From Nanobdellota archaeon (GTDB lineage Archaea > Nanobdellota > Nanobdellia > Pacearchaeales > GW2011-AR1): DNA of 64,000 nucleotides. Position 1 is the stretch's first letter. Each line of letters opens with the position of its first letter. The notes below the pieces were generated by a model. The model saw nothing but the letters and a program-made list of their open reading frames with translations. It did not search any database and was not told where the DNA came from. Shown here piece by piece: positions 18,758 to 59,234 of this stretch. The position numbers and the translations under genes were made by a program. The DNA lies in NCBI GenBank assembly GCA_038045945.1, contig JBBSXC010000001.1:75680-139679 (forward strand), in the 5' to 3' direction.

Positions 18758-20794
18758 TTAGTGGTATTCGTTTCTTGCTTTGAATGAGTCTATGAATTTG
18801 CTGTTGTCGTCTCTGTTTACTACGCTGTTTAGTTCGTATGCTTCTGTGTCTCCTTTAACTATCTTTTTGACTTTTGTTGCTGATGCTACTCTTCTTTGCA
18901 TTTGTTGTGATAGTAATACTTCGCTTGTTGCTCCGTCTGCTAATTTTTTTGCTAGGCTTAGTGTTTGTCCTAGGCTTGTGAATTTTAGTTTTTTTGTTTG
19001 TTTGTCTATTTCTACTACTAGGTCTCCGTGGTTTATTCCTATTCCGAATTCTATTTTGTTTGCTGGGTTTGATTTTGAGTTGTGTAGTGTTAGTACGGAT
19101 TTTATTTCTTGTGCTATTATTAGGCTTGTGTTTTCTGTTTTGTATGTTTTCGTTGCGCTTGGTGCTAGTATTCCTATGATGAATTCTTCTGCTTGGTATA
19201 CTGATCCTTTAACTTTTGTTATTTGTGCTATTATTGTTTCTAGTGCTGTTTTGTAGTAGTCTTGTTTTTCTATTTTTTGTTTGTTTTTTATTTTTATTGC
19301 TATTATTGAGCATGGTTCTTTAACTCCCCTTATTACTAGTGAGTGTTCTGCTTCTTTTGGTGTTACTCTTCCTATTGTTACGTCTGAGCTTCTTATTGTG
19401 CTTATGTTTGGTGCTTCGTAGTTTGTGTTTCCGTACTTGTTTCCTTTTACAAGCCTACTTAATGCTGCCAGTGAAGGCATGTAGTGTATGAATTTTTGTT
19501 TTCCTAAGCCTTTTGATACTCCGAATATGAATAGTCCTAATACGCCTAGTATGAATAGCCATACTAGCGAGTATCTTGTTATTATTGATGTGCTGTCTGC
19601 TACGTCGATAAGTCTTACTGCATTACCTGTTAGTGATATTCCTGATGCTGAGAATTTTCCTACCCCATCTGTTGCTGATACGTCGTAACTTCCGTCTGGT
19701 GCTTGTAAACTGTATATTGCGCTTTCACCAACTCCTAATTCTAAGTCTATTATTTCTTTGTTTGGTCCTATTCCTACCTCAACGCTTTTTTTGTATGGTA
19801 CGTTTCCCGTATTTGCTATTTTTAGTGTTGTGTTGACTATTTCGAATGTTACTTTTTCTACTTCTGGTACGTAGAAGAATCGTTTGTTGCTTAGTGATTC
19901 TACTTTTACTACTATTGTTCTGTATCCTGGTGTTTCGTTTATTGGTAAATCAATCATTATGTCTTCTCCCGAGTTTACTATTTGGTCGTTTATTTTTGTG
20001 TCTTCTCCGTTTAGTAATGAGTATCTTGCTTGTGTTGTTATTTCTTTATCTGTTTGGTCGTATACTAATATTTTGAATTTGTATGGTGTTCCTGGTGTTG
20101 CTTCTTGGTTTTCTATTGATACTTCTATTTTTCTTGCTTCTTGTTTTACGAATATGTTGCTTTCTAGGTTTGCGTCGTTTATTATGTTTCCTTGTTTGTC
20201 TTTTTCGTAAACTTTTGTTTTTATTGAGTATGTTCCTGATGCCATGTTTTGTGGTAGGCTGAAGTTGTATACTGCTACTCCGTTAATTACTGGTAAGTCT
20301 AGTGATATTCCTGCTTCTGCGAATGTTACTGATGCGAATCCGTTTATTGCTTTTCCGTTTGCTTTTGTTGCGCTTATTCTTATGATTATGCTTTCGCTAG
20401 GCCCTACTTCTTTTTTGTCTATTTCTGCGTATGCGTCGGTGTGGTCGCTTATTGTGAATGTTTGGCTTTGAACTGATGATGTTCCGTATGTTGCTGCTAT
20501 GAAGCATGATCCTTTTAGTGGTCCTATGAATGAGTTTGATAAAGTGAATGATTTTCTTACAATTGTTGATGATAATATGTCGTGTGTTATTACTACTTTG
20601 TTTTGTTCGCAGTTAAGACTCATATCGAAGAAGTTGTCTGATAAGCTGTCCACTGTTGCTGCTAGTGTTATTTCGTCGCCTAAGTTGTAAATTGCTGCTG
20701 GTTGTTCTAAGAATACTTCAGCTCGCACAGCGCTAACTGTTAGTAATAATGTTACTGCTAAAACTATTAATAATACTGTTGATGACTTCACCAT
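18758..20794 (-). CDS. single-pass surface protein: Ig-like ectodomain plus degenerate class III nucleotide cyclase domain
   Basis: Signal peptide, beta-rich ectodomain (NTGNV), one TM, cytoplasmic FGIGINHGDLVV...KFTSLGQTLSLAKKL...EVLLS. Confidence 0.7.
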   Translation of the reverse strand: MVKSSTVLLIVLAVTLLLTVSAVRAEVFLEQPAAIYNLGDEITLAATVDSLSDNFFDMSLNCEQNKVVITHDILSSTIVRKSFTLSNSFIGPLKGSCFIAATYGTSSVQSQTFTISDHTDAYAEIDKKEVGPSESIIIRISATKANGKAINGFASVTFAEAGISLDLPVINGVAVYNFSLPQNMASGTYSIKTKVYEKDKQGNIINDANLESNIFVKQEARKIEVSIENQEATPGTPYKFKILVYDQTDKEITTQARYSLLNGEDTKINDQIVNSGEDIMIDLPINETPGYRTIVVKVESLSNKRFFYVPEVEKVTFEIVNTTLKIANTGNVPYKKSVEVGIGPNKEIIDLELGVGESAIYSLQAPDGSYDVSATDGVGKFSASGISLTGNAVRLIDVADSTSIITRYSLVWLFILGVLGLFIFGVSKGLGKQKFIHYMPSLAALSRLVKGNKYGNTNYEAPNISTIRSSDVTIGRVTPKEAEHSLVIRGVKEPCSIIAIKIKNKQKIEKQDYYKTALETIIAQITKVKGSVYQAEEFIIGILAPSATKTYKTENTSLIIAQEIKSVLTLHNSKSNPANKIEFGIGINHGDLVVEIDKQTKKLKFTSLGQTLSLAKKLADGATSEVLLSQQMQRRVASATKVKKIVKGDTEAYELNSVVNRDDNSKFIDSFKARNEYH

Positions 20795-31603: not shown

Positions 31604-32938
31604 ATGGTTAAAAAAGTAGAAAAAGTTTCTGTTGATACTCACAGCGAATCATTCATTAGTATTTCTGATGCTATCAAGCAAGGTTCTGGTCGTGTTTCTA
31701 TTAGAGGTTGGGTTTATCGTGAGAGGGATGGAAAAGAATTAAGATTCATAGTCCTAAGAGACTCAAGTAATATAATACAGTGCGTGTTGAAAAAGGAAAA
31801 GTTTGAAAAACAATGGGGAGAGATAAGTAAAATAGGAATTGAAAGCTCACTAGAAATAGTTGGGGAAATAAAAGCAGACGCTCGAGCACCAACAGGTTAC
31901 GAAATATCAGCAGAAAAAATAATAATAGTGCAAATAGCTGAGGATTTCCCCATTAACAAAGATTTGAACGAGGAGTTGCTTGGAGACAGAAGGCATTTGT
32001 GGCTTCGTAGTAGAAAGATGACTTCTATTATGAAGATTAGAAGCAGGTATATACAGGCTAGAGAAGCATTCTTTCATAAAGAGGGATTTTATCGTTTTGA
32101 TACTCCTATACTTCAACCAACACAAAGCGAAGGTGGAAGTACAGTTTTTGAAGTAAAATATTATGATAAAAAAACGTTTTTAGCCCAAACATGGCAGTTA
32201 TACGGCGAATCAGCAATTTTCGCTCTTGAAAAAGTTTACAATATGGGTCCAACTTTCAGGGCTGAGAAGAGTAATACTTCAAGACATTTATCTGAATTTT
32301 GGATGGCAGAAGTAGAAGTGGCCTGGTGGGGTCTTAAAGAAATATCTGAGTTTGCAAAAAAAGAATTAAAACATTGTATAAGCATAGTGGTAAAAGAATG
32401 TGAGGAAGAGTTTAAGATATTAGGAGTGGATGCAAAAAAATTGTTAGAGATGACAAAGAAAGAGTGGCCTACAATTAAGTATCGTGATGCACTAAAATTA
32501 ATAAAAGAAAAAGATGGGATGACAGTACCGTTCGGCAAGGATTTAAGGACAATTGAAGAACAAACAATAATGAAACATTTTGATACTCCTGTTGTTGTTA
32601 CTCATTATCCTAAAGAAATAATGGCTTTTTATAAGCCGAGTGACCCAAAAAGTCCTGATGAAGCATTATGCTTTGATATGTTAGCTCCACAGATAGGCAT
32701 AGAGATAGTTGGAGGAAGCCAAAGAGACTTGAATGTTGAGGAGATGTCAAAAAAACTAAAAGCTGATGGTGAAGACCCAAAAAATTATCAGTTTTATTTT
32801 GATACTAGGAAGTATGGAAGTGTGCCTCATTCAGGATACGGAGTAGGAATCGAGAGGGTAATACAGTGGATTTGTGGTCTTGAAAGTATTAAGGATGCTA
32901 TTGCCTTCCCTAGGACTATGAATAGGACAACTCCTTAA
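31604..32938 (+). CDS. asnS: asparaginyl-tRNA synthetase
   Basis: RHLWLRS, QLYGE, PTFRAEKS.TSRHLSEFW, EIVGGSQR, YGSVPHSG.G.GIER. Confidence 0.93.
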   Translation: MVKKVEKVSVDTHSESFISISDAIKQGSGRVSIRGWVYRERDGKELRFIVLRDSSNIIQCVLKKEKFEKQWGEISKIGIESSLEIVGEIKADARAPTGYEISAEKIIIVQIAEDFPINKDLNEELLGDRRHLWLRSRKMTSIMKIRSRYIQAREAFFHKEGFYRFDTPILQPTQSEGGSTVFEVKYYDKKTFLAQTWQLYGESAIFALEKVYNMGPTFRAEKSNTSRHLSEFWMAEVEVAWWGLKEISEFAKKELKHCISIVVKECEEEFKILGVDAKKLLEMTKKEWPTIKYRDALKLIKEKDGMTVPFGKDLRTIEEQTIMKHFDTPVVVTHYPKEIMAFYKPSDPKSPDEALCFDMLAPQIGIEIVGGSQRDLNVEEMSKKLKADGEDPKNYQFYFDTRKYGSVPHSGYGVGIERVIQWICGLESIKDAIAFPRTMNRTTP

Positions 32939-33041
32939 ATAATTGCGATAATTACTAAAAAGATTATGAGTGCGCCTTAATGATTGATCAGTATAGTTTG
33001 TTTCAGCAATTCTTAAATAACGTTCTAACAACTAATTTTTT

Positions 33042-33845
33042 ATGAAGAGACGTTATTTTCCTTTGACTCGTGGTAAAAGGTTGAGGGAAGCAAATTTTGA
33101 TTCCACTTGGGATAGTTATCTTAAAGGTAGAAGCGATTATGATCGTAATGCTTTGGTAGAGCATTATATGCCTTTAGTTGATGATGTTATTAATTCTTTA
33201 ATTAGGACTTTGCCCCCTTATATTGATGTTCAAGAGTTGTCAGGTCCTGGGAATATGGGTCTTCTTCAAGCAGTTATTAATTGTGATTCTAAAAAACTAA
33301 CAGTTTTTGATCATTATGCTAGGAAGAGAATAAAGGGTTCTGTTCTTGATCATTTGAGAAGTTTAGACTTTATGCCTAGGACTAGAAGAATATTTTTGAA
33401 GAAGTCAAAGAAGGCTGAGTTAAATCTCAATAATAAGCTTGGTAGAAAATGCACTGATGAGGAATTATGTAAATATATGGGTATGAGTTATGATGATTAT
33501 TATAAGAAGATGTCTGAGGCTCGCGAAGTTGAGAGTTTGGAGTATGATGATTTTGGTACAGAAACAGCCTCTAATGATTTGAGAAGAAGGAGACTTTTAT
33601 TAGAAGATTTAGATTTAGATCCTCAAATAGCAACTACTCTAAGAGAAGTTTCTAGTATAGCCAGGGATAATCTTTCTGATGAAGATTATAAGATGCTAAC
33701 TTTAAGAATGGAGAATAGAGGTAATGAGGAGATAGGTATAAGTATTCGTGGTTTAGCTCCTTCCACAATTTGTGCTAGATTAAGAAAAGCGGTTTATCCT
33801 TGTATTAAGGAGAAATTGGGTGAAGGTTATGAAGAAGCAGCATAA
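33042..33845 (+). CDS. FliA/WhiG (sigma-28)-like RNA polymerase sigma factor homolog
   Basis: RNALVEHYMPLV (region 2.1), LPPYIDVQEL...G.MGLLQA (2.2), F..YA.KRIKGS.LD.LRSLDF.PR (2.3/2.4), LGR..TDEEL...MG (region 3), divergent region 4 HTH. Confidence 0.85.
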   Translation: MKRRYFPLTRGKRLREANFDSTWDSYLKGRSDYDRNALVEHYMPLVDDVINSLIRTLPPYIDVQELSGPGNMGLLQAVINCDSKKLTVFDHYARKRIKGSVLDHLRSLDFMPRTRRIFLKKSKKAELNLNNKLGRKCTDEELCKYMGMSYDDYYKKMSEAREVESLEYDDFGTETASNDLRRRRLLLEDLDLDPQIATTLREVSSIARDNLSDEDYKMLTLRMENRGNEEIGISIRGLAPSTICARLRKAVYPCIKEKLGEGYEEAA

Positions 33846-34653
33846 ATTAGGAGTTTTTCTTGAAGGTGGTGGCATTAAGACTTTTTATGGAGGTGGAGTT
33901 ATTGATCAATTAAAGGCTTTTGGGATAAAGCCCGATTATTATGCTGGCATAAGTGCTTCTGCTGGTACAATATTTGGTAACATTTTTTCTTGTAGTGAAG
34001 AAATAATTGATATTTTTGGTAAGAGGTGTGATAATAATAAGAAAAACTTTTATTTCTTTAGAAAGCCTCACTTTCCTCATAACCATATGATGGAGAATTC
34101 TCTTATAAAAATTTTTGATAAGCACATAAAGAATCCTAATTCTAAATCAGAATTCAAAATTATTGCCGGAATAACGAATAATAACTATTCTTGGGTTAAG
34201 ACCCATTTGGTTCTTTATTTGATGATAATGAAAAATCTTCTTCGCATAAACCTCTTTGATTATTTCAGAAAAATGTTTTCTGTTAAAGAATCAAGTATTA
34301 CCTCTGATGATAACTTAGATAAAAAAGTTATTGTTAATTTTATTATGGGTTCTTCAAGCATCTATCCTTTCATCAAACCCCATTATCATGATGGTAAACT
34401 CTTGCTCGAGGCTAATTGTTTAGATCTAGATTACCAGAATTGTCTAAGTAATTGTGATAAAGGTATAATAATTCATAATTCTACTGGTAAAAGTTTTGTT
34501 AATGGTAAATTTTTACATGTTTATTCTTCTACTAGTTTGCCCAGTAACATTTTAGATTATACTAGCAAAGAAAAGCTTGTTAGTTTAAGAAAAGTTGGTA
34601 TGCTAGAGGTAAAAAAGCAGAAATTTTTTGTTGAAAAGTTTATTTCTTCTTAA
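33829..34653 (+). CDS. patatin-like phospholipase
   Basis: EGGGIK oxyanion motif, GISAS nucleophile elbow, SSSIYPF; DGG motif replaced by EAN; overlaps the sigma gene end. Confidence 0.7.
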   Translation: MKKQHKLGVFLEGGGIKTFYGGGVIDQLKAFGIKPDYYAGISASAGTIFGNIFSCSEEIIDIFGKRCDNNKKNFYFFRKPHFPHNHMMENSLIKIFDKHIKNPNSKSEFKIIAGITNNNYSWVKTHLVLYLMIMKNLLRINLFDYFRKMFSVKESSITSDDNLDKKVIVNFIMGSSSIYPFIKPHYHDGKLLLEANCLDLDYQNCLSNCDKGIIIHNSTGKSFVNGKFLHVYSSTSLPSNILDYTSKEKLVSLRKVGMLEVKKQKFFVEKFISS

Positions 34654-34721
34654 TTTTCTCTTCGTTCTTGTCAACTTCTTGTATCTTTTAAGTGGTAATG
34701 TACAGTTTATTAAAAAAAGTG

Positions 34722-34739
34722 TCGTCGATTTATCGACGA
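34722..34739. promoter_or_regulatory. perfect inverted repeat upstream of ftsZ
   Basis: TCGTCGAT-TT-ATCGACGA. Confidence 0.45.
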
Positions 34740-34964
34740 TAAAACAACGTAGCTATAGGGTAAAAATATATAAAGAAGAAGTGCTTCGTGTTTGTATTAA
34801 TTTGACCCGCCAAGATTAAATTAATACCGTTCGTTTAATGAAGAGTATTTCTTAAGAGTTATTTGTAACTCTTTTTATTAATAGGATAAAGAACAAACAA
34901 GTATTTAAACTTGCCGTTTTATATTCTATCTAACAACACAAAAAGGAGGATACAAAAAAAGAAA

Positions 34965-36038
34965 ATGTTAAATTTTGCGGAAGAGGCGATTAAGAATTCT
35001 GCTGCTTACAGCATCAACTTTGATGAACTTAAAGCCGGAAAAGCCAATATCAAGGTTTTCGGTTGTGGTGGAGCTGGTTGTAATATGATTACATGGCTCT
35101 TCAATAAGGGTATCAATGGTGCTACTGTTTATGGTTTGAACACTGATGCACTTCACCTTAGTATTACTAAGGCTGATGAAAAAATCTTAATAGGTAAGGA
35201 ACTTACTAGAGGTCTTGGATGTGGTGGTTTTCCTGCTAAAGGAAGAGAAGCTGCTAAAGAGTCAATCTCTGATATTAAGAAGGGTGTTAGTGGTGCAGAC
35301 ATGGTCTTCGTTCTTGCTGGTATGGGTGGAGGTACAGGTACTGGTTCAGCACCTGTTGTTGCTCAACTTGCTAAGGAAGCTGGCTCAGTAGTTATTGGTG
35401 TTGTCACTATGCCTTGGGAGATGGAGAAGGCTAGAATTGACAAAGCAGAATTTGGACTTCAGGAGCTTAGAGATGCAACGGACACTACAATTGTCCTTGA
35501 CAATAACAGGCTTACTGATATTGCTGGTAATTTGCCTATTGAGCAAGCATTCGCTGTTGCTAATGAACTGGTTAGTACAATGATTAAGGGAATAGTGGAA
35601 ACTATTACTCTCCCATCATTAATCAACCTGGACTATGCAGACGTTTCGGCCATCATGAAGGGTGGTGACGTTGCTGTCATTGGTATTGGTGAAAGCGACA
35701 CTCAGAATAGAGTAGATGAAGCTGTTCGTCAAGCATTGACTCACCCATTACTGGATGTTGACTATAGGGGCGCTACTGGTGCTCTTGTTCACATTAGTGG
35801 TGGTACTGACTTAAAGCTTGAAGAATTTAGTAATATTGGTATGTTAGTTACTGAAAACCTTTCACCAGATGCTCAAGTGATCATCGGTGCGAGAATCAAC
35901 AAGGATTTTGCAGGTAAAGTAAGAGTTATTACCATCATGACTGGTGTTAAGAGCCCTTATGTTCTTGGCAAACAAAGAACTAACTCCTATGAGTCTAGCT
36001 CAGAGATGTCAGAGCTTGGAATAGAGGTTTTAAGATAA
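34965..36038 (+). CDS. ftsZ: cell division protein FtsZ (likely FtsZ2 type)
   Basis: [31 protein letters not shown]; AGGAGG before ATG 34965. Confidence 0.96.
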
Positions 36039-36095
36039 TAGTTTCCAAATTATTATCATACTCCAGTATTCGGCAAGCTCATGATTTGTTTTTTT

Positions 36096-36153
36096 GAGGA
36101 TCCGCCCATAAGGGAAGCGTTTCGCGACGCGTCCTAAGGGATTGGGCGGCCTC
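36096..36153. ncRNA. GC-rich stem-loop downstream of ftsZ (ncRNA or terminator)
   Basis: GAGG/CCTC, CCGCCCA/TGGGCGG and GCGT/ACGC stems, with T runs on both sides on the + strand. Confidence 0.5.
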
Positions 36154-36213
36154 CATTTTTTTATGTTTTATGGCTGCAAGTATGAAAGGTTTTTTAGGCT
36201 ACTAGTCTTTTTT

Positions 36214-36726
36214 TTAGAATATTTTTATTAATGTGTTGCTGAAGTATCCTGTGTTTGAGCAGTGGTATACTTTGTGTGTTACTTGATTTAGATTTCCGTA
36301 ATAGATTAAGTTGTTTTTTTCTAATAATTCATCGTTTTCTTTTGCGTATTTTACTTGTGGTGGTTTGAACTTTTCTGGTTTGTAGCCTAAACATTCTTGG
36401 AATGCTTTTATTCCTTCATTCATTTCTTCTTGTGTTCTTTGTGTTTCGAATTCTCTATAAGTATGGCGTATTCCGTGCAGCCCTAATGTTTTATTGAAGC
36501 TTTTAATGTAGTTGCACCATTGTGTGTTATTTGCTATTGACTGGTTTTGGTATAGTGGTATAATCCATAAAACATCGCTTTTTCTTATTAGTTCTTCATC
36601 GCATTGTATTAGTGGGTTTAGATCGTCTAACTCTGCTCGGTTTATTAGTCTGATTGTAAATAATGCTAATATCAGTATTAGTATAGTAGCTGTTGTTATT
36701 ATCAATCCCTTTTTTGTTTTGTTCAT
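36214..36726 (-). CDS. DUF2334/polysaccharide deacetylase-like protein
   Basis: N-terminal TM, LDD, GLHG..H...EF, F.PP. Confidence 0.7.
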   Translation of the reverse strand: MNKTKKGLIITTATILILILALFTIRLINRAELDDLNPLIQCDEELIRKSDVLWIIPLYQNQSIANNTQWCNYIKSFNKTLGLHGIRHTYREFETQRTQEEMNEGIKAFQECLGYKPEKFKPPQVKYAKENDELLEKNNLIYYGNLNQVTHKVYHCSNTGYFSNTLIKIF

Positions 36727-36736
36727 TAGAAAGAAT

Positions 36737-37288
36737 TTATTGTCTTTTGTTCTTATCCCATTCTTCAAAGTATAGTGTGTCTTCTATTTTTGGTTTCGCT
36801 GTCGCTTTTTTTCTGTCTCCTAACTTTACTGGTGCTTCGTAACCTATTGGTATTATTGCTTCCACTTCTACTTCTTTTGGTATTTTTAGTAATCTTTTTA
36901 TTATTCTGTCTGAGAAGTGTCCTATCCAACAACTTGCCATTCCTGCTTCACTTATTGCTAGTAGCATGTTGTTTATTGCTGCTCCTGCTTCTTGGTGTGC
37001 GAACATTTCTCCTTTTTTTTCAAAGTTTCTTAATAGTTGTTCTTTTCGCGAGCATACGACTATTATTGCTGATACATCTGCCAGGAATCCTTGTTGGCAT
37101 GCGTCTGCTATTTGCATAATCTTTTTTTGTTCGCTTACTATTATGTAGTTTAGTGTTGGTATGTTTCCTGCTAGTGGTACTTGGTTTGCGTAGTCTATTA
37201 TTTCTGCTACTTCTTTCCAACTCACAGTTTTTTCTTTTATGTATGATCTTACTGATTTTCTCTTTTTTAATAAGTCGTAAAAATTCAT
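36737..37288 (-). CDS. nitroreductase family protein
   Basis: KRKSVRSY, P.AGN, A..NMLLA....GMASCWIG, IPIGY. Confidence 0.9.
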   Translation of the reverse strand: MNFYDLLKKRKSVRSYIKEKTVSWKEVAEIIDYANQVPLAGNIPTLNYIIVSEQKKIMQIADACQQGFLADVSAIIVVCSRKEQLLRNFEKKGEMFAHQEAGAAINNMLLAISEAGMASCWIGHFSDRIIKRLLKIPKEVEVEAIIPIGYEAPVKLGDRKKATAKPKIEDTLYFEEWDKNKRQ

Positions 37289-37364
37289 ATAATGAGTATG
37301 TTTGGCAGGTATAAAAACTTTGAGATGCATTTTGTTAAGCACTTCTAAACCTCAAGAACTTTTT

Positions 37365-37736
37365 TTATAATATGTCGGCTCTGTCTATTTGTTCAAGAGT
37401 ACTTTTAAGTGTTGCATCCAGGTCTTTTGCGTTAACACGGTTATTTCTAACAATCAACTTTTTTGCTTCTGCAAGGTTTCTTTCTGCTTCTTTCCATAAG
37501 CCTTTACTTAGTGATGCGCCTTCAAATGTTCCTACGTAGAAGTCTCTTCTGAGCCCGCCAGTCATACCCCTTCTTCTTTCTACTTCTGTTACAACAACGT
37601 TTGTGTTAGTTCCCTCATAGTTTGCTATGTAGAAGTTATGGTTTGCGTCATCATCACTTATAGTCATATTCGGTTCTTCACCATTAATTCCTGCTCTTCT
37701 CAGCGTTTCTGCCTTAGCGTATCCTGTTAGTGTCAT
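37365..37736 (-). CDS. hypothetical protein
   Basis: 123-aa ORF with TATA-like element upstream. Confidence 0.55.
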   Translation of the reverse strand: MTLTGYAKAETLRRAGINGEEPNMTISDDDANHNFYIANYEGTNTNVVVTEVERRRGMTGGLRRDFYVGTFEGASLSKGLWKEAERNLAEAKKLIVRNNRVNAKDLDATLKSTLEQIDRADIL

Positions 37737-40518: not shown

Positions 40519-40624
40519 ACAAAACAAACAAGAAAATACGCGTATTTAAGTTTAATTGTTAATAGGATGAATCCTGCGTTCTAGTATAGAAGTGTTTAAA
40601 TTGTTCTTAGTCATGATACACTCC

Positions 40625-41785
40625 ATGGATTCTAGACCTATTCCTGAAAGAATAAGTGAAAGAGTTTATAATGGTAGGAGTTTAGCTGAGATGCTCAATT
40701 TTTCTAGGGATTATGGTGCTAGTGATATTAAGTTTGTTGTTGGTTTGCCACCTTATTTTAGAAGGGGTGAAGGATTAGTTCATAATCTTGGTGATGGTAA
40801 GGGCGCTTTTGAGCCAGTAAATCTTGAAACTATGAATAAGTTTGTTGATTGTTTAACAACACAAAAGCAGAGGGACAAGTTATTATCTGGAGAGGAGGAT
40901 TTAGATATGTCAGTGATAATGCCAGAGAATGACGGGGCAAGATCTTATAGACTAAACTTGGCTATGCAGAAAGGAACGCCAATGATAATGATAAGAGTAG
41001 TTCCAGATAAAATAAGGCCTTTATCAGATCTTGGACTTCCAAAAACTATAATTGACTATTTTAGGACTTTACAAAGGGGTATTGTTTTGGTTACTGGGGC
41101 TACTGGTGCTGGTAAGTCTTCAACTTTAGCTGCGATGGTGGATGATATAAGAGTTAGGAATAGTGATGAGATAATAACTATTGAAGACCCTATAGAGTAT
41201 GTTCATAATTCTGATTCATCATTAATAATTCAGAGGGAGTTAAGAAGGGATACTCAGTCATATAGTTCGGCATTGAAGTCTGCTATGAGACAAGACCCTG
41301 ACGTTATAGCTATAGGAGAAATAAGGGATACTGAAACCGTGAGAGCATGCTTAGAATCATCTTATACCGGTCACTTAGTCTTAGGAACTTTACACACTGC
41401 TGATGCTATACAAAGTGTTAATAGAATGATCGATTTGTTTCCTGAAAGTTTACAAAGAGATATATCGTCTCAGCTTTCCGATACTTTAAGAATTGTTATT
41501 TCTCAGTCTTTAGTTCCAACAATTAATGGTGGTAGAAAACTTGTGGCTGAGATTTTGAGGAATGACCCTTTTTCTGCTATATCTAAACAAATCCGTGATA
41601 GGGATCCTCCTGGAAAAATTTTGTCTAGTATGCAAACAGGTAAGAGGTATGGGATGGTAGTTATGGAAGACGCATTGTTTGACGCTTATCAGGCAAATCT
41701 TATCGATAAAGTAACAGCTTTTGGTTATGCTATAAGAAAAGATGAGATGAAAAGAAAACTAGATTTTGGCGAGTTAGGCAAATAA
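40625..41785 (+). CDS. pilT: PilT/PilU-like type IV pilus retraction ATPase
   Basis: ASDI, GATGAGKSST, TIEDPIEY, QRE, RQDPDVI.IGEIRD, TGHLV.GTLH, AISKQIRD (AIRNLIRE-like), MQTG...GM. Confidence 0.85.
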   Translation: MDSRPIPERISERVYNGRSLAEMLNFSRDYGASDIKFVVGLPPYFRRGEGLVHNLGDGKGAFEPVNLETMNKFVDCLTTQKQRDKLLSGEEDLDMSVIMPENDGARSYRLNLAMQKGTPMIMIRVVPDKIRPLSDLGLPKTIIDYFRTLQRGIVLVTGATGAGKSSTLAAMVDDIRVRNSDEIITIEDPIEYVHNSDSSLIIQRELRRDTQSYSSALKSAMRQDPDVIAIGEIRDTETVRACLESSYTGHLVLGTLHTADAIQSVNRMIDLFPESLQRDISSQLSDTLRIVISQSLVPTINGGRKLVAEILRNDPFSAISKQIRDRDPPGKILSSMQTGKRYGMVVMEDALFDAYQANLIDKVTAFGYAIRKDEMKRKLDFGELGK

Positions 41786-43151: not shown

Positions 43152-46613
<3,462 letters not shown>

Positions 46614-46835: not shown

Positions 46836-49800
46836 TTATTCGTATTTGTTTCCTAGTTCGAATTGTGTTTTAATGTGTAGTCCTTGTAGTTCGTCTACTA
46901 GTAGTTTGAATGCGTATGATACTTCTATTTTTTCTATTTCGTTGCTTGAGCATGCTGGGCATGTTATTTTGTTTCTTATTCTGTCGTCTACTGCTAAATA
47001 TCCGCACTTAGCGCATATTGGTAGTACTACTCTGTCGCTGTCGTATCTTTCTTTTAGTAATAATGATGCTCCATGAGCAACAAGAGCTTCTTGTTCCATT
47101 TCTCCTAGTCTTAATGCTCCTCCCATGCTTCTTCCTTCTATTGGTTGTCTTGTTAATAGTTGTACTTTACCACTTGCTCTTGCGTGTAGTTTGTTAGCTA
47201 CCATATATTTTAGTCTTAAGTAGTACATTTCTCCAATGTATATTTTTGCTTTCATTACTCTTCCTGTTATTCCGTCGTACATTGTTTCTTTACCATCGTA
47301 TCTGAATCCTATGCTTTTTAGTTCTTCTTCTAGTTCATCTCTGCTTTCACCTGAGAATGCTGTTCCGTCAATTATTCTTCCTGAGTTGCTTCCTACTTTT
47401 CCTCCCATTAGTTCAATTAGGTATCCCATAGTCATACGTGATGGGATTCCGTGTGGGTTGAACATTACGTCTGGTTTCATACCACGCGAAGTGAATGGTA
47501 TGTCATTTTCTGGTACTATCATTCCAACTACTCCTTTTTGCCCGTAAGGTGTTGAGAATTTGTCTCCTAATTCTGGTATTCTTTGGTCCCTCATTCTTAC
47601 TTGTACTAGTCTGTTTCCTTCGTTGTCGATTGTTAAGAATACTGCGTCAACTATTCCTTTTTCTTCTTGCCTCATTGCTGAAGATGATTCTTTTCTTGTT
47701 CTAACACTAATTTCTCTTGCTTCTGATAAGAATTTTGGTGGTGAAGTTTTTCCTATGATTACGTCTTCTTCGTGCATGTCTGCTTCAACGTATGCTATTC
47801 CGTCGTCTTCTAAGAATTTGTAGCTGTCTTGTGTTCTGTATCTTGATGTGTCTTTTTCTGGTATTTCTATTTTGTCAGCTAGTCCTCCAGCGTAATGTAT
47901 TTCTTCTGTTACGTAAGGTCTAAAGTATGTGCTTCTTCCCATTCCTCTTTGTACGCTTCCTCTGTTTAGCACTATTGCGTCTTCCATGTTGTATCCTTCG
48001 TGTGTCATTACTGCTACTACTAAGTTTTGTCCGCTTGGGTAAATGTTTAAAGTGTCATAAACGAAACTTCGAACGATTGGTTTTTGTGGGTAGTGTAGTA
48101 CTGATACGTCTGTGTCTACTCTTACTGGGTAGTTTGCTGCGTATATTCCTAATGCCTGTTTTTGTGTTTTTGATCCTCTGTTAAGACGGGAAGCTTGGTT
48201 GTGGTTTGCGTATGGTACTAAGCTTGTTACTAGGCCTAGCAAATCTATGTGGTCTATTTCTAGGTGTGTGTGTTCGCTTGTTAGTTCGTCTTTGTTTAGG
48301 CATACTAGTGAGTTTTCTTCTTCTCTTGCGTCTAAGTATTCTACTATTCCTTGTTTTAGTAAGTCGTTCCAGTTCATTTCTCCGGCTGCTAGTGAAGCTT
48401 CGTGGTCTTCTGTGAATCTGCTTACTCCGTTGTCAACTATTATTATTGGTCTTAGTACTCTTCCTGTTTCGCTTGATATTATTATTGTTTTTAGTTCGTC
48501 GTTTAGTCCTATGCTTAATTCCATTGGTAGTTTGTCTCCTCTTCTCATTTCTTTTACTTTTCCTATGAATTCTTTTTCGTCGTCTACTGATCCTACGAAT
48601 CTTCCGTTGAAGAATACGTCATGGTTGTATCCTTCTTCTGTTTTTGTGTTTGGGCTCATTCCTAATGCTTCTAGTGTTTCAACAAACTTTTTTTCTTCTA
48701 TGTTTGATCTTGTTGCTATTCTGCACATTATTGCTAAATTCTTTTTCAGTCCTATTTCTGTTCCTTCTGGTGTTTCTACTGGGCAGAATCTTCCGTAGTG
48801 TGTTGGGTGTAAAGTTCTAGCCATGAAGTTTTCTTGTTCTCCTGGTAGTTGGCTTGACACTTTTTGTAGTTGTGATAGTATTGCTAAGTAGTTTGTTTTG
48901 TCCATGTTTTGTGTTACTCCGCTTGTTTCTCCAATCCAGCTTCCTGTTGCTATTGCTGATTCCATTCTGTGTGAGAATAGTGTTGATTTTGCTATTGTTT
49001 TTACTGAATAAAACTTTTTTCTTTTTGCTATTTTTTGCAATGAGTATTGTATGTCTCTTATTAGTATGTTCATGTTAACTCTGAATAGGTCTGCTAGTAA
49101 GTCTCCGCTTAGTCTTACTCTTTTGTTTGCGTAGTGGTCTTTGTTTGTGACTATTGATGAGTCGTCTTTTGCTGCGTAGAATTGTTTTATTAGCTTACAT
49201 AGTGTTACTGCTTTTTCTCCTCTGTCATCTTTTCCTAGGCCTATGTGTGGCATTAAGTATGAGTCTAATCTTTGTTTTACTCTGTCTACCATTTCTTTTT
49301 TTGTTCCTTGTAATGATGTTTTTTCTGCTATGTACACCATTGCGTCGTCTGCTGTGTGAATGTTAGCGAATTCGTAAAGGTTTACTATGAATGAGTCGCT
49401 TTCTCTACCTACAAAACGAGCTATGTCGCTTTCTTTTGTCATTCCTAATGCTTTTAGTACTACTACTGTTGGTATGTTTTTGAATCTTGAGAATGATGTT
49501 TCTAGTATTCCTTCACTTGTTTCTGTTATTGATACTGGTATTCTGTATGATCCTCTTAGGCTGAATAATCTTAAAGTTAGTTTTCCTCTTGATATTCCTA
49601 TGAATGGTTGGTTTGGTGCTAAGTCTTCTATCATTACTATTACTCTTTCGTTTCCGTTAACTATGAAGTATCCTCCCGGGTCTAATGGGTCCATGTAGTT
49701 TTCTTCTAATTGTTCTTTATTCATTCCGTAAGTGTTACAAATATTACTTCTTACGATTACTGGTATTTTTCCTATTTCGAAGTTGTGGCTTTCTATGTTG

Positions 49801-50102
49801 CTTCCTTGTTTTACGCTTATTTCTACAAATACTGGTGCTGAGTATGTTAGGTTTCTTAGGCGTGCTTCTGTTGGTGTTAGAACGCTTGTGCTTCCGTCTG
49901 CTTCCACGACTACTGGTTTTTGCACGCTTACTTTTCCTAGTTTTATTTCGAAGTCGTCTGATATTAACCCGTCTGATATTTCGTCAACTATTTCTTGCAT
50001 TCTTTTATCTAAGAAGTTGTTGAATGATACAATGTTTGATTCTACTAGTGAATGATTGGCTAAATAGTTTTTTAGTATTACGTGCTTTTTATCAACTACC
50101 AT
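46836..50102 (-). CDS. rpo2: DNA-directed RNA polymerase subunit B (unsplit)
   Basis: DPGGYFIVNG, CPVETPEG, GYNMEDA, GDKFS..GQKG, RQPIEGR..GGALRLGEME. Confidence 0.97.
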   Translation of the reverse strand: MVVDKKHVILKNYLANHSLVESNIVSFNNFLDKRMQEIVDEISDGLISDDFEIKLGKVSVQKPVVVEADGSTSVLTPTEARLRNLTYSAPVFVEISVKQGSNIESHNFEIGKIPVIVRSNICNTYGMNKEQLEENYMDPLDPGGYFIVNGNERVIVMIEDLAPNQPFIGISRGKLTLRLFSLRGSYRIPVSITETSEGILETSFSRFKNIPTVVVLKALGMTKESDIARFVGRESDSFIVNLYEFANIHTADDAMVYIAEKTSLQGTKKEMVDRVKQRLDSYLMPHIGLGKDDRGEKAVTLCKLIKQFYAAKDDSSIVTNKDHYANKRVRLSGDLLADLFRVNMNILIRDIQYSLQKIAKRKKFYSVKTIAKSTLFSHRMESAIATGSWIGETSGVTQNMDKTNYLAILSQLQKVSSQLPGEQENFMARTLHPTHYGRFCPVETPEGTEIGLKKNLAIMCRIATRSNIEEKKFVETLEALGMSPNTKTEEGYNHDVFFNGRFVGSVDDEKEFIGKVKEMRRGDKLPMELSIGLNDELKTIIISSETGRVLRPIIIVDNGVSRFTEDHEASLAAGEMNWNDLLKQGIVEYLDAREEENSLVCLNKDELTSEHTHLEIDHIDLLGLVTSLVPYANHNQASRLNRGSKTQKQALGIYAANYPVRVDTDVSVLHYPQKPIVRSFVYDTLNIYPSGQNLVVAVMTHEGYNMEDAIVLNRGSVQRGMGRSTYFRPYVTEEIHYAGGLADKIEIPEKDTSRYRTQDSYKFLEDDGIAYVEADMHEEDVIIGKTSPPKFLSEAREISVRTRKESSSAMRQEEKGIVDAVFLTIDNEGNRLVQVRMRDQRIPELGDKFSTPYGQKGVVGMIVPENDIPFTSRGMKPDVMFNPHGIPSRMTMGYLIELMGGKVGSNSGRIIDGTAFSGESRDELEEELKSIGFRYDGKETMYDGITGRVMKAKIYIGEMYYLRLKYMVANKLHARASGKVQLLTRQPIEGRSMGGALRLGEMEQEALVAHGASLLLKERYDSDRVVLPICAKCGYLAVDDRIRNKITCPACSSNEIEKIEVSYAFKLLVDELQGLHIKTQFELGNKYE

Positions 50103-54755: not shown

Positions 54756-54869
54756 AATTAATGTTAACCATTGTTAACTTATAAACTTTAACTATTGTAA
54801 CAGTGGTTTTTTGTGATAATAGTCTTTATATATCTAAAATCACTGTTTTTTTTAGCAGGTTTTTGTTTT

Positions 54870-57800
54870 ATGAATAATAAAAAGAGGGCGCTTAAGAATA
54901 AGAATAATTTTTTGTTAGTTTCGCTAATTGTTTTCTTAATAATTTTGTTATCAATAACTATTTTACGGCTAAGTTATCAAACTATTACTGGTGAAGCTCA
55001 AAAATCTGATAAGAATGGAGGGTTAGAATTAAGTCCTGGGATTACTCAGTGTAATGATGGTGTTGATAATGATAATGATGGTTTAGTGGATTATGGTTAT
55101 GATTTGTCCTGTGTTAGCGAATCTGATAATTCTGAGATTGGTGTTAGTGGTCAGTTGGAGGATGGTTGGACTAATTTTGAGCCTTCTGTTGATACTAGGG
55201 TTGTTTATGTTAGTTCTAGTACTGGTGATGATTCTTATGATGGTTTAACACCTTCTACTGCTAAGAGGACTTTAGCTAGTGGATGGTCGCTTATGCGTGA
55301 TACTTATCCTGATTGGTTATTGCTCAAAAAAGGAGACACTTGGTATAGTGAAGCTATAGCTGAAGTACCTTTTGGGTACTCTGGGCGTTCAGAATCAGAA
55401 AGAACAATTGTAGCTTCTTACGGGCAGGGAGAAAGGCCGAGGTTAGTTAATGGGTTTTTTCGTGGTGATCGTATAAATAATATCGCATTCGTTGATATAA
55501 AATTTGATGTTTATGACCCTAACACTTGGGCTCCTAATACTATGACCCTTGGTAATGGTGCTAATTACCTTATTGAGGGTTGTTATTTTGCTCGTGGCGG
55601 AATTAATATTCAAAATAAGGTTACTAATGTTAAGATTCGTAATAGTATGCTTGTTGATTCTATCAGCTTCCTTGATGGGGGAGTAAAAGTTGGTGGTATG
55701 GGTGCTTTTTTACATGATATTACTGGACTCTTAATGGAGAATAATGTTGTTGATTATAATGGTTGGCGCGATCCTGATATTCCTAGAAGTGTTTTCACTC
55801 ATAACATTTATAGTCAATACACAAATAGGGATGTAACTTCGAGAAATAATATTTTTGCTAGAGGATCAGGGGAAAACGAGATGCAGCGATCTGGTGGTGA
55901 CATGATAAATAATTTGTACTTAAGGGGCCCTTTTGGTCTTAGTTATAGTGATGATAAAAATCTTGATCCAAGTGGATTAATAAAAGATAATGTTGTTCTT
56001 GATGGTGATGATCTTTGGCCTACGAATGGGGGACGAGGTTTTGGTATAGAACTTAAGTATGTTAATGATGTTGAGGTAAGTGGAAACATTATTGCTCATA
56101 ATGTTCGTGGTAGTTGGGGATTTGGTATTTCTTTTGGCGGGGATGCTTCAAATATTAATCTTCATGATAATATTGTTTATGATTGGGTTGGTAAGGATGA
56201 TGGTGGTTGGGCAACTGTTGGGATTTCTGCAGCAGCAGCGTTTTCAGGAAATAACTATTTTACTAATAACCAGATTAATCTAGCTAAGGGTTGGCTTATT
56301 GATTCATGGGCTGGTAACCCAATCACTTATTCTGGTAATACTTATTATCGTGGTGGCGCAGTTAATGATCACTTCCAGAGAAGTTCTCCTATGGGCGATT
56401 CAGAGTGGCCTGCCTTTTCTGGTGAGACTAACGCTCAGTTTAAACAACTCAATTATTTAGATCCTAATCGTGATATTTCAACATATATGGCAAGTTTGGG
56501 AATGACACCTACTCTTGAAGCATTCTTAGCCGAGGCTAGAAAGAATACTAAGGATAATTGGGACGTCCGATTTACTTCTAATGCGGTTAATGATTATATT
56601 AGGGAGGGTTTTCAAGTTGTTGAAGAGAAAAAAGATGATAAAATGTTAGTTCCTGGTTCAGGATTCTCTGGAGAAACTCCCCAGCCTGCAACCTTGGGTG
56701 CTGGTCCTGGTTCTGATGCTAAGGCTATTGCTAGGTGGGATGTTGTTCCTTTTCAAACTATTACTAATAAGTTGAATGTTGGTGTTTTGGCTTATCACAT
56801 AAATGATATTAAGAGTGTTGATTTTTCTTTAGATAGTGGCCCTTGGATTAGTGTTACAGAAACTTCTATTAATCCTGATACTAATGTTGATGAATACTTT
56901 GTTACCTTTGATGCAAAGGGATTGTCTGATGGTTTACATGAGATTCGTGCTATCGCCTATCCTAATGTTGGCATTCCTAGAGTTCTTTCTGGTGATTTTG
57001 CTAGTCATAGTGGTTCTTTATTTTTGAATTCTAATTCTAAGGGTACTTTGAGAGAAGTTTTTATGTGGGTTGCTCCCGAGGGAAATGATGGTAATCCTTG
57101 TACTGAAGCTTTGCCTTGTGCTTCTCCTTTTAGAGTTGCTCAAAGAGGTGCTGACTTGAATAATAATGCTGATGGTGTGACTGTTTATATGAAAAAGTCT
57201 GCTGATGGAACCCCTGGCAGGTATGCTTGGCCTAGGACTTATTGGCCTGCTCCTTATACTTATACTCGTTTCTTAACTATTAGTTCTGCTCCAGGACTTG
57301 ATAGGAGTGAAGTTATTTTTGATCGTGGTGTTGCCCCTAATTCTGATGGCGCTTATGATCAAGCTGGTGGTTTTGGCACGAGTAAGGTTCATATGAAGGA
57401 CCTTACTTTTGAGCGAACAGCAGCTAATACTGATAATTCTGGTAATCGAGGTAATCCTTATGGTGGTGCTTGGCTTTGGCTCCAGAATGTTCATTTTGAT
57501 GGTAAAGGTTCTGGCCTTGGAAGGCCTCACTCAGGGTGGGATGGTATTTGGGCTACTGATGGTAGTAGTGTTGATAGTTATGAATGGGCTTTTTATGGTG
57601 CTCTGTTATTAAGGGGTGTGCGTATAACTAAGATTAGTTCTCAGGGTTGGCAAGATGTTGGAGGAATTTTTTATAGCACTATTGATGTTATTGACCCTTC
57701 ACTTTATCCAGAGAGAGGTGTCCATCCTGATCTTGAGTATTGGTGGGGCATGAGTGGCGATGTTAATGCTATTAGAAAAAATTTGAGGGTTTATGATTCG

Positions 57801-59234
57801 TCAGCCCAAACAATTTTTATTAAGAATGGTGTTCCTATCTCTAACGTTGTTTGGGATAATGTTCTTTATGATTCTGCTAATAGTGATATTAATGCTCAAA
57901 ATATTGACCACTTTATTATTAAGGATTCTACTTTCTCTGGCGGTGCTTGGTATAGTACTGCTGCCGGTTTAGATCCTTCTTACACTATGACTTGGAAGAA
58001 TGTTTTGATAAAAAATAGTATTTTTAATTTGTGGGCTTTGAGTATTGGTGGCGAAAACGTTAACATTTTTAGCAATCATTATATTCTTTCTCCACCAACG
58101 TGGGGTGCTCAAACTCCAGGTACTGATTTCACAACTGGCGATCCTGGTTTTGTTGATCAAGGCAGTAATGATTTTACTCCTAAGAGCGATAGTGTTCTTT
58201 GCAGGTCTAACGGTATTACTGTTGGTGCTATTCTTTGCCAGGGTAAGACTCCTGTAGTTGTTTGTGGTAACTCTAAGGTTGAATCTGGAGAATTATGTGA
58301 TAGCACTTCACAATCATGTACTATTGATGGTTCTTCCGGTACTCAAACTTGTAAAAGTAACTGTAAGGGTTATGATTCATGCCAGATTATTCCTAAGAGT
58401 AAAGTTGATGAATTGAAAGAGAAGTTTGATGGATCTCAAACAATTAAGCTAGATGAGGTTAGTGATTTAAGAAAAGTTAGTAATTTAGAGTTGGTTAAGA
58501 ATGGTATAGGAAGAATATTGTTTTCTAAGGAGATTGATTTAAAGAAGTATGATAGTAGTTTAACTGTTGAAAATATTGCTAAGAAGATTAGTGATTATGT
58601 TAACATTTATGATAAGACCGTGGTTATTGATTCTGCGAACTTACCAGAGTTAAATGAGCCTGCATCAATAACGCTTAATATAGGTGTTGGTAAGAAAGAA
58701 AGCGATTTAGTTATACATCAAGATGGAGTTAAATGCCCAGCAGATGTATGCTCTAGCCCAGTTTATAATTCTTTAACTGGGGAATTATCATTCTCAGTTA
58801 CTCACTGGACTAATTATACTATTATTGAGTCTAACTCTAGTGATAACTCAACAGAGAATAACAGTTCTAATAATGGCAGTATTAGTAATCAAACAGGCAA
58901 TGATAGTGCAGGATCTGGTTCTGGAGGTAGTAGCGGAGGGTATATCGGAGGTGGAGGAGGCGGTGGAGGTTATAGCGCTCCAGCAGTTAAGAATAATACT
59001 AATGCAAGTGTCAATAAGAGTCCAAGTATTAGTCCTGTTGATAAAATTAAAGAGTTATTTAGTGTTCCTAAGGTTACTAATGATAACCCTTCTGATATTA
59101 GGGTTATTTCAAAATCAGAAATAATAATTATTTCTTTGTTAGTAATTATTGGACTTGTATTAATAGCTATAATAATTAGGTTATTAATGAATCGTTTTAG
59201 GAGTCAACCTGTTACTGTTCCTTCTCAATTATGA
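54870..59234 (+). CDS. giant membrane-anchored surface protein with two beta-helix (pectin lyase-like) regions
   Basis: N-terminal TM, CNDGVDNDNDGLVD Ca-binding motif, VYVSSS.G.D..DG, HNIY, beta-helix repeats, CGN...E.GE.CD module, HWT.Y, Gly/Ser linker, C-terminal TM. Confidence 0.75.
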   Translation: MNNKKRALKNKNNFLLVSLIVFLIILLSITILRLSYQTITGEAQKSDKNGGLELSPGITQCNDGVDNDNDGLVDYGYDLSCVSESDNSEIGVSGQLEDGWTNFEPSVDTRVVYVSSSTGDDSYDGLTPSTAKRTLASGWSLMRDTYPDWLLLKKGDTWYSEAIAEVPFGYSGRSESERTIVASYGQGERPRLVNGFFRGDRINNIAFVDIKFDVYDPNTWAPNTMTLGNGANYLIEGCYFARGGINIQNKVTNVKIRNSMLVDSISFLDGGVKVGGMGAFLHDITGLLMENNVVDYNGWRDPDIPRSVFTHNIYSQYTNRDVTSRNNIFARGSGENEMQRSGGDMINNLYLRGPFGLSYSDDKNLDPSGLIKDNVVLDGDDLWPTNGGRGFGIELKYVNDVEVSGNIIAHNVRGSWGFGISFGGDASNINLHDNIVYDWVGKDDGGWATVGISAAAAFSGNNYFTNNQINLAKGWLIDSWAGNPITYSGNTYYRGGAVNDHFQRSSPMGDSEWPAFSGETNAQFKQLNYLDPNRDISTYMASLGMTPTLEAFLAEARKNTKDNWDVRFTSNAVNDYIREGFQVVEEKKDDKMLVPGSGFSGETPQPATLGAGPGSDAKAIARWDVVPFQTITNKLNVGVLAYHINDIKSVDFSLDSGPWISVTETSINPDTNVDEYFVTFDAKGLSDGLHEIRAIAYPNVGIPRVLSGDFASHSGSLFLNSNSKGTLREVFMWVAPEGNDGNPCTEALPCASPFRVAQRGADLNNNADGVTVYMKKSADGTPGRYAWPRTYWPAPYTYTRFLTISSAPGLDRSEVIFDRGVAPNSDGAYDQAGGFGTSKVHMKDLTFERTAANTDNSGNRGNPYGGAWLWLQNVHFDGKGSGLGRPHSGWDGIWATDGSSVDSYEWAFYGALLLRGVRITKISSQGWQDVGGIFYSTIDVIDPSLYPERGVHPDLEYWWGMSGDVNAIRKNLRVYDSSAQTIFIKNGVPISNVVWDNVLYDSANSDINAQNIDHFIIKDSTFSGGAWYSTAAGLDPSYTMTWKNVLIKNSIFNLWALSIGGENVNIFSNHYILSPPTWGAQTPGTDFTTGDPGFVDQGSNDFTPKSDSVLCRSNGITVGAILCQGKTPVVVCGNSKVESGELCDSTSQSCTIDGSSGTQTCKSNCKGYDSCQIIPKSKVDELKEKFDGSQTIKLDEVSDLRKVSNLELVKNGIGRILFSKEIDLKKYDSSLTVENIAKKISDYVNIYDKTVVIDSANLPELNEPASITLNIGVGKKESDLVIHQDGVKCPADVCSSPVYNSLTGELSFSVTHWTNYTIIESNSSDNSTENNSSNNGSISNQTGNDSAGSGSGGSSGGYIGGGGGGGGYSAPAVKNNTNASVNKSPSISPVDKIKELFSVPKVTNDNPSDIRVISKSEIIIISLLVIIGLVLIAIIIRLLMNRFRSQPVTVPSQL

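Follow-up and report, generated by a model that had tools for sequence, protein, structure and literature searches.

A FliA/WhiG-like sigma-70 family gene on the chromosome of a Pacearchaeota-type archaeon

Results

A sigma-70 family gene lies between asnS and ftsZ

The stretch of DNA analysed here (the window; 64,000 nucleotides) comes from the genome of a Nanobdellota archaeon (G000; 847,022 bases in 7 contigs, 93% complete, 1% contamination), in which it spans positions 75680-139679 of a 140-kb contig (C1). Between asnS and ftsZ, the window carries a gene of the bacterial sigma-70 family, referred to below as the window sigma, and the 3' end of this gene overlaps a gene for a patatin-like phospholipase. 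A first-pass annotation made from the letters of the window had described a FliA/WhiG-type sigma factor with regions 2 and 3 present and region 4 divergent, encoded between archaeal asnS and ftsZ, and both the position and the domain content were borne out by the profile searches reported below. The sigma gene and its parts are as follows.

33012-33020, plus strand: TATA box, C-TTAAATAA, of the putative leaderless promoter of the sigma gene, at -30 to -22 of the ATG; TTAAATAA itself lies at -29 to -22
33042-33845, plus strand: sigma-70 family gene, FliA/WhiG-like; an intact open reading frame (ORF) with an ATG start, 267 amino acids plus stop
33087-33365, plus strand: sigma2 domain (residues 16-108; regions 2.1-2.4), matched by the Pfam region 2 family; in the model made with the alignment, its helices have a predicted local distance difference test score (pLDDT) of at least about 90
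33378-33533, plus strand: sigma3 domain (residues 113-164), matched by the Pfam region 3 family; modelled with confidence even from the single sequence (pLDDT 84-91), as no other part was
33534-33620, plus strand: region 3.2-like linker (residues 165-193), predicted to be disordered (pLDDT <50 for residues 165-190)
33621-33818, plus strand: degenerate sigma4 (residues 194-259), without a Pfam match; alignable to FliA region 4 only when the full-length proteins are aligned

We conclude that the host is an archaeon, because the genome encodes TATA-binding protein (TBP; two repeats, 97 bits), transcription factor B (TFB) and transcription factor E (TFE), and because the window itself holds archaeal-type RNA polymerase subunits with Rpb2 domains 1-7 and Rpb1 domains 1-5, GatD and GatE, and an intron-bearing tRNA. 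The archaeal RNA polymerase A and B genes thus lie on the same contig as the sigma gene. Relatives of the large subunit at 73-82% identity are labelled Pacearchaeota or Nanoarchaeota by their sources. This subunit (43152-46613, minus strand) is a single protein of 1153 amino acids with Rpb1 domains 1-5, i.e. A' and A'' are fused, and subunit B (46836-50102, minus strand) is likewise a single protein of 1088 amino acids. The fused A form, at about 1140-1200 amino acids, is common to the relatives listed, several of which are named Pacearchaeota by their sources.

The window sigma is FliA/WhiG-like and has a degenerate region 4

Sequence comparison places the window sigma in the sigma-70 family, with FliA/WhiG as the nearest subfamily. 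In Pfam searches it matched Sigma70_r3 (PF04539; residues 120-179) at 32.9 bits against a cut-off of 25.3 and Sigma70_r2 (PF04542; residues 38-108) at 24.9 bits, barely above the cut-off of 24, and its region 4 gave no match to PF04545 or PF08281 at E<=0.01. Among 24 NCBIfam matches, the best six were all FliA/WhiG/sigma-28 models, in agreement with the type assigned by the first-pass annotation, and were followed by SigBFG (39.7 bits) and RpoD_Cterm (25.3 bits). The protein stayed under every curated NCBIfam cut-off, e.g. it scored 104.5 bits on TIGR02479 (FliA/WhiG), for which the cut-off is 189.6. The best solved relatives were E. coli FliA (6pmi) and Aquifex sigma-28 (1rp3), at 73 bits each.

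The window sigma keeps FliA-like motifs of the FxxYAxxRIxGxxLDxLR and D(W/F)xPR types as well as the region 2.2 skeleton (G70, G73, L74, D82). We determined the share of consensus residues kept at the columns conserved in 40 FliA-like relatives and ranked the window sigma among the resulting 41 proteins. This share was 0.69 in sigma2 (4th lowest), 0.71 in sigma3 (8th lowest) and 0.53 in sigma4 (2nd lowest). In sigma4, the conserved E-S-R has become P-S-T, a 93%-conserved Q has become A and a YY pair is lost; the columns of the E-S-R and Q residues are 85-93% conserved in the 40 relatives. We take E-S-R and Q of region 4.2 to be the residues that read the -35 element. Judged by this alignment, the window sigma is without the conserved DNA-reading residues of sigma4.

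With 41 aligned sequences as input, AlphaFold gave a model with a pLDDT of 83 that comprised sigma2, sigma3, a disordered linker and sigma4. All 47 PDB matches listed by Foldseek for this model were sigma-factor chains or entries built around them. The model made from the single sequence was poor (pLDDT 50) and confident only for sigma3; therefore, the sigma4 fold rests on the family alignment.

Altogether, the window sigma resembles bacterial FliA/WhiG proteins in its length, which is about 240-270 amino acids in that group, and in the order sigma2-sigma3-linker-sigma4. It differs from them in its sub-cut-off scores, in the loss of the region 4.2 reading residues and in its archaeal TATA promoter.

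The sigma gene has a native promoter and composition and is not an assembly artefact

Of the 631 long ORFs in the genome, 278 have a TATA-like hexamer that starts at -31 to -27, and this genome-wide peak, at -30 to -27, is the signature of leaderless transcripts. The sigma gene conforms to this pattern, with CTTAAATA at 33012-19, 22 nucleotides ahead of its ATG. In a leave-one-out matrix, its promoter scored 5.28, i.e. at the 66th percentile of all ORFs, a value reached by 0.48% of 5000 random positions in the genome. These observations uphold the earlier description of a TATA promoter of the native leaderless type.

GC content is flat across the window; that of the sigma gene (0.343) is close to the genome mean (0.350), and the codon use of the gene is native (37th percentile). 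This composition implies that the gene has either resided in the genome for a long time or come from an AT-rich donor.

Contigs made by an independent assembler span asnS, the sigma gene, the patatin-like gene and ftsZ in two sequencing runs (X1, 3639 nucleotides, window positions 31973-35611; X2, 8525 nucleotides, window positions 31973-37500), with 0 differences and with even depth (19.6 and 12.2). Moreover, the junction between the sigma gene and the patatin-like gene is crossed in two further runs (X3 and X4). The four runs are DNA from two samples of one groundwater study; these samples may be the source of the genome. As every junction is bridged by independent contigs from the two runs, we conclude that the sigma locus is not a chimera. 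The first-pass annotation had named a chimeric assembly, or dN/dS near 1 together with an absence of orthologues in related genomes, as findings that would speak against it; continuity was found here, and of the second pair, as described below, the absence of orthologues was observed.

The genome lacks matches to the partners of a bacterial sigma-28

In the 93% complete genome no bacterial rpoC was found, the best score being 245.7 bits on the archaeal subunit against a cut-off of 963.5. Searches of the genome likewise returned no C-terminal domain of the bacterial alpha subunit (alpha-CTD; best E 0.25), no FlgM (best E 0.21) and no flagellin (0 matches). The setting of the window sigma is thus unlike that of bacterial FliA/WhiG, since bacterial core polymerase, FlgM and flagellin were all missing from the genome.

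For sigma-28 promoters, we used the consensus that we take to be TAAA-N15-GCCGATAA. One full match was present in the genome against 0.4 expected, near C1:1976-2003 and outside the window, which is within chance. The -10 element with one mismatch occurred 25 times inside the window against 28.1 expected, i.e. it was not enriched. A working sigma-28 was therefore rejected, because bacterial beta-prime, alpha-CTD, FlgM and flagellin were missing from the genome, the consensus was not enriched and the reading residues of sigma4 are lost. As the genome holds no bacterial core polymerase, no FlgM and no flagellar genes, the window sigma cannot work as sigma-28 does.

The window sigma is an orphan in a variable chromosomal slot

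When 41 genomes of the same order were searched with the window sigma, a strong match was obtained only in its own genome, and three others gave weak, partial matches (E 7e-8 to 4e-4). Besides the window sigma, a word-indexed search of 5.8 billion proteins returned two FliA proteins of bacterial type, which were 36-37% identical to it over 46% of the length. With phmmer, 9146 of 1.84 billion representative proteins matched at E<=1e-3; the best besides the window sigma itself reached 108 bits at 33% identity, and at E<=1e-30 the window sigma stood alone. The best DPANN match had 66.9 bits. Of the 30 top matches that were looked up, 4 carry organism names (Planctomycetota, Opitutales/Verrucomicrobia, Verrucomicrobia and Aenigmarchaeota), and an Aquifex metagenome-assembled genome (MAG) is a fifth name; the protein of the Aenigmarchaeota MAG (P0017) is named 'FliA/WhiG family' by NCBI. 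No relative was found in viral contigs, and seven weak matches in phage records (30-37% identity) were no closer. In total, we conclude from these searches that the window sigma is apparently an orphan, found only in its own species-level lineage.

The FliA/WhiG model itself matched 145 of 401 high-quality genomes of the phylum at E<=1e-5, none above the cut-off and the best at 170.8 bits; in the family of the host, 10 of 27 genomes had a match to the FliA model. The phylum count includes three unpublished genomes (G371, G283 and G284), on which no result depends.

In a genome of the same genus (G001), the order is asnS, an ORF for a membrane protein of 63 amino acids and the patatin-like gene, the latter 68% identical to that of the window. 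Neither a sigma gene nor a remnant of one was found in the slot between asnS and the patatin-like gene of G001. The 63-amino-acid ORF has its own TATA box at -30, and no homologue of it was found in G000. The sigma gene therefore lies in a variable slot, since G001 keeps asnS and the patatin-like gene around the 63-amino-acid ORF without a sigma gene. The comparison indicates that the slot 3' of asnS varies between close relatives and that the patatin-like gene is the conserved element.

In a FastTree phylogeny of 133 rows, 36 DPANN rows formed a DPANN-only, RpoD-like clade with 100% local support, which includes a second, RpoD/RpoS-like sigma of G000 (described below) and its G001 counterpart. 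The window sigma and 11 DPANN FliA-like rows were scattered among 85 FliA-like matches from the databases. In a tree of 54 rows under a better model, the window sigma fell inside the FliA-like group without a resolved sister, on an end branch of 1.86 against a median of 0.86. The phylogeny proposed in the first-pass annotation thus recovered a DPANN-only clade; in these free trees the window sigma fell outside it, and no donor emerged. Profile scores of the window sigma were 192 bits for database FliA-like, 117 bits for DPANN FliA-like and 43 bits for DPANN RpoD-like sequences, the database set being biased as it was picked by likeness to the query. The scores point to FliA, and the NCBIfam models, which are independent of this set, agree with them.

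The patatin-like gene and other neighbours

The genes and signals that flank the sigma gene or overlap its 3' end are as follows.

31604-32938, plus strand: asnS (asparagine--tRNA ligase), upstream flank; NF003037 458 bits, cut-off 414; 63% identical copy in G001
33809-33823, plus strand: putative Shine-Dalgarno-like signal, GGAG...GGTGA, ahead of the patatin-like start and inside the 3' end of the sigma gene
33829-34653, plus strand: patatin-like phospholipase gene, 274 amino acids; ATG at 33829 (alternative GTG at 33820); PF01734 45.4 bits, cut-off 27.7
34965-36038, plus strand: ftsZ, downstream flank; TIGR00065 381 bits, cut-off 295.2

The patatin-like ORF overlaps the sigma stop by 17 nucleotides from the ATG and by 26 nucleotides from the GTG. 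The ATG start matches that of the G001 homologue, which also begins MKK there. The protein carries the oxyanion GGG and the nucleophile Ser motif, and none of 17 relatives departs from it at G14, G15, G40, S42, S44 or D243; D243 is the presumed catalytic Asp. The oxyanion GGG, the nucleophile serine motif and the invariant aspartate are shared with patatin-like phospholipases (PF01734). The subfamily of the window protein differs from these in having G-x-S-x-S instead of G-x-S-x-G. It also has an invariant N-x-L-D-Y-T motif and is small, its named members belonging to Pacearchaeota, Nanoarchaeota and one Kaiserbacteria of the candidate phyla radiation (CPR).

The patatin-like gene was present in 2 of 41 related genomes, and further relatives in the databases have 62-65% identity. 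A scan of metagenome contigs with the protein gave no match; with the patatin alignment, the scan gave only two fragments of 36 residues and a record that, where compared, did not differ from the G001 locus. Among 11 other DPANN FliA-like loci, none (0/11) had a patatin-like neighbour and no conserved neighbours were found. The coupling to the patatin-like gene that the first-pass annotation described therefore stands as a physical overlap and goes no further, G001 having the patatin-like gene without a sigma gene and the 11 other loci having no patatin-like gene.

Upstream of the sigma gene, a match to the Asp-tRNA(Asn) ligase family reached 489.6 bits. A mobile-element context was considered and rejected: the annotated neighbours have housekeeping functions or code for ordinary enzymes, none of them is an integrase gene, and 6 kb separate the sigma gene from the closest tRNA gene. 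A PilT/PilU-family ATPase (40592-41785, plus strand; NCBIfam 329.3 bits, cut-off 319.1) is encoded 6 kb downstream of the sigma gene, and no link to it was found. Further away, an ORF of 1473 amino acids (54813-59234, plus strand) has as its sole Pfam match a Nup98-96 autopeptidase S59 domain (32.3 bits, residues 1217-1336), which is unusual for an archaeon, and an ORF of 677 amino acids (18758-20794, minus strand) has no Pfam match at E<=1e-4.

Other sigma genes in G000 and related DPANN genomes

G000 encodes a second sigma-70 family protein on contig C5 (57703-58566; L003:1354-2220), which is RpoD/RpoS-like and has 288 amino acids, with region 2 at 54 bits and region 4 at 41 bits. Its gene is preceded by TTTTAATA at -30 to -23. 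BLASTP detected no similarity between the two sigma proteins of the genome. The G001 counterpart of the second sigma is 34% identical, and 13 of 61 genomes of the family have a match.

Another genome of the family (G453) has a well-preserved FliA-like gene (L059:1453-2238) with Pfam regions 2, 3 and 4 and a score of 308 bits on the profile of the window-sigma alignment (A1). This gene directly follows a gene for a MinD/ParA-type ATPase, and its strongly supported sister is a database match. Its GC content (0.40-0.43) is slightly above that of its flanks, perhaps a sign that a similar transfer took place more recently.

Like the window sigma, the other DPANN FliA-like genes are scattered among database FliA sequences and form no single DPANN clade (7 label changes); those at the 11 loci mostly have long branches (median 1.75). 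All six of the other DPANN FliA-like proteins scanned have Pfam region 4, which the window sigma lacks.

Genomes of the class also encode sigma proteins of 563-719 amino acids (L034, L028, L024, L044, L035 and L040) with high-scoring regions 1.2, 2, 3 and 4 and long N-terminal parts. Regions 1.2, 2, 3 and 4 were present at 28-90 bits in 6 of 10 long DPANN sigma proteins scanned, one of which is from G371. The proteins of 563-719 amino acids look like full primary-type sigma factors in archaeal genomes.

Discussion

Rinke et al. in 2013 are said to have been the first to report sigma-70 genes in DPANN archaea. Such genes have been described especially in Woesearchaeota, with mis-binning ruled out, no anti-sigma factors and the mechanism left open in the part of the paper that treats them (Castelle 2021, PMC8204110), and a literature search yielded no further paper on sigma-70 genes in DPANN. 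Like the genes of that family (fam00359), as far as they are characterized in that part of PMC8204110, the window sigma is a bacterial-type sigma on a verified archaeal chromosome for which no anti-sigma factor was found, and its setting, i.e. a contig with archaeal markers (RNA polymerase A and B, GatD/E, AsnRS, FtsZ) in a genome with TBP, TFB and TFE, is the situation described there. It differs in being FliA/WhiG-like, in falling outside the DPANN-only RpoD-like clade in the free trees, and in being an orphan whose region 4 gave no Pfam match. Thus, the novelty implied by the first-pass annotation did not survive: the window sigma is not new in kind, as sigma-70 genes in DPANN are already in print. 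This locus stands out in that its slot is defined, a relative shows the 'empty' state, region 4 is lost and a very small genome holds two sigmas that are unrelated to each other.

The reading that we prefer, and about which we remain evenly poised, is that the window sigma is a horizontally transferred, resident and domesticated, lineage-specific accessory transcription regulator and not a canonical sigma factor. A FliA/WhiG-type sigma gene would have entered a Pacearchaeota-type (DPANN) chromosome by horizontal transfer and settled in the slot between asnS and a patatin-like gene that is conserved in the genus. There, a native TATA promoter of the leaderless kind would most likely drive its transcription, and it would be the leading gene in a unit of two, followed by the patatin-like gene. 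The bacterial counterparts of sigma2 and sigma3 contact the clamp of the polymerase as well as -10 and extended -10 DNA. The retained sigma2 and sigma3 surfaces of the window sigma, perhaps together with a re-specified sigma4 helix, might bind DNA or possibly the archaeal polymerase, and the regulator would act alongside TBP, TFB and TFE and not replace them. We favour a retained but altered function because the ORF is intact, the composition native, the promoter spacing exact and sigma2 and sigma3 preserved; most simply, this would be a DNA-binding accessory regulator. The repurposed DNA-binding regulator suggested in the first-pass annotation likewise fits the intact ORF, the native codons and promoter, the kept sigma2 and sigma3 and the lost sigma4 reading residues, and as a function it is put forward here in the conditional. 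Moreover, it counts in favour of this reading that sigma genes are kept in DPANN archaea, as seen in the 145 of 401 genomes, in the DPANN-only clade and in the six long proteins that carry regions 1.2, 2, 3 and 4.

Several observations weigh against an accessory regulator. No orthologue of the window sigma was found and hence selection could not be gauged by dN/dS. As G001 has an equivalent TATA at -30 of its small ORF, the patatin unit may simply have had this promoter before. The last 78 residues of the window sigma on their own matched no Pfam family (0) even at E<=10, and AlphaFold predicts the sigma4 fold with confidence when given the family alignment but does not support it otherwise. 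The long branch fits relaxed constraint as well as changed function. Finally, an approximately unbiased (AU) test did not reject joining the window sigma to the DPANN RpoD-like clade (p 0.739; the constrained tree was better by 11 log-likelihood units). Hence a link to this clade, outside which the window sigma falls in free trees, may exist, and the tree cannot settle the origin of the window sigma.

Several of these points are what would be expected of a neutral passenger, i.e. a transferred sigma gene without function that is tolerated between a pre-existing promoter and the patatin-like gene and slowly decays, sigma4 first. Besides the missing orthologues, the long branch and the degenerate sigma4, such a passenger would account for the promoter-patatin unit without a sigma in G001 and for the patchy occurrence of sigma genes in the family, both for the second sigma (13/61) and for the FliA model (10/27). 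However, an ORF of 267 codons has stayed intact in a reduced genome of 0.85 Mb at 35% GC, composition and codon use are fully native, the spacing between TATA box and ATG is exactly that of leaderless genes, and the conserved columns of sigma2 and sigma3 are kept at 0.69-0.71. We regard a passenger as unlikely, while taking it seriously. A more improbable alternative is a sigma-like factor of the archaeal polymerase, with sigma2 on the clamp coiled-coil of the large subunit, serving as an alternative initiation or regulatory factor beside the second, RpoD-like sigma. The kept region 2.2 skeleton, two different sigma genes in one genome, both with native promoters, and the well-conserved DPANN-only clade, which implies some function inside archaeal cells, are all in line with it. 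The complex predicted for the window sigma and residues 1-340 of the archaeal large subunit scored 0.22, against a mark of 0.32, a value that speaks neither for nor against binding. Evidence to the contrary comes from the presence of TBP, TFB and TFE, from the lack of enrichment of sigma-28-type promoter motifs and from the window sigma itself, an orphan with a degenerate sigma4; moreover, we know of no biochemical precedent for a sigma-like factor on an archaeal polymerase.

Two further explanations are harder still to sustain. An effector or decoy acting on the polymerase or the FlgM of a bacterial neighbour, also proposed in the first-pass annotation, would make sense of the retained core-binding region 2 and of nearest named relatives that are mostly bacterial; beyond this we found nothing in its favour, and it is very improbable. 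The N-terminus of the window sigma is basic, with no hydrophobic stretch and no signal peptide, no secretion-linked gene adjoins, nothing at the locus suggests export and FlgM was not found in the genome; to our knowledge, no bacterial host or partner of these archaea has been described. An assembly chimera or bacterial contamination, to which the bacterial character of the gene family might point, is scarcely credible, since the junctions are bridged with 0 differences and at even depth, two further runs cover the junction between the sigma gene and the patatin-like gene, and both the composition and the archaeal-type promoter are native to the host.

The role of sigma-70 proteins in archaea without a bacterial polymerase is a question that was raised in print in 2021. 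The locus described here alone changes nothing in existing knowledge. It is, however, a clean and well-anchored case, with an exact insertion slot, an 'empty' state in the same genus, a native leaderless promoter and a second, unrelated sigma in a 0.85-Mb genome, and might be of use as a compact test system. It is conceivable, if decidedly doubtful, that the two sigmas of this genome form a small 'sigma system' acting on the archaeal RNA polymerase, in which the fused A'/A'' subunit would offer its clamp coiled-coil to sigma2 and the two proteins would modulate TBP/TFB-dependent initiation. If this were true, bacterial sigma modules would be reusable on the archaeal enzyme.

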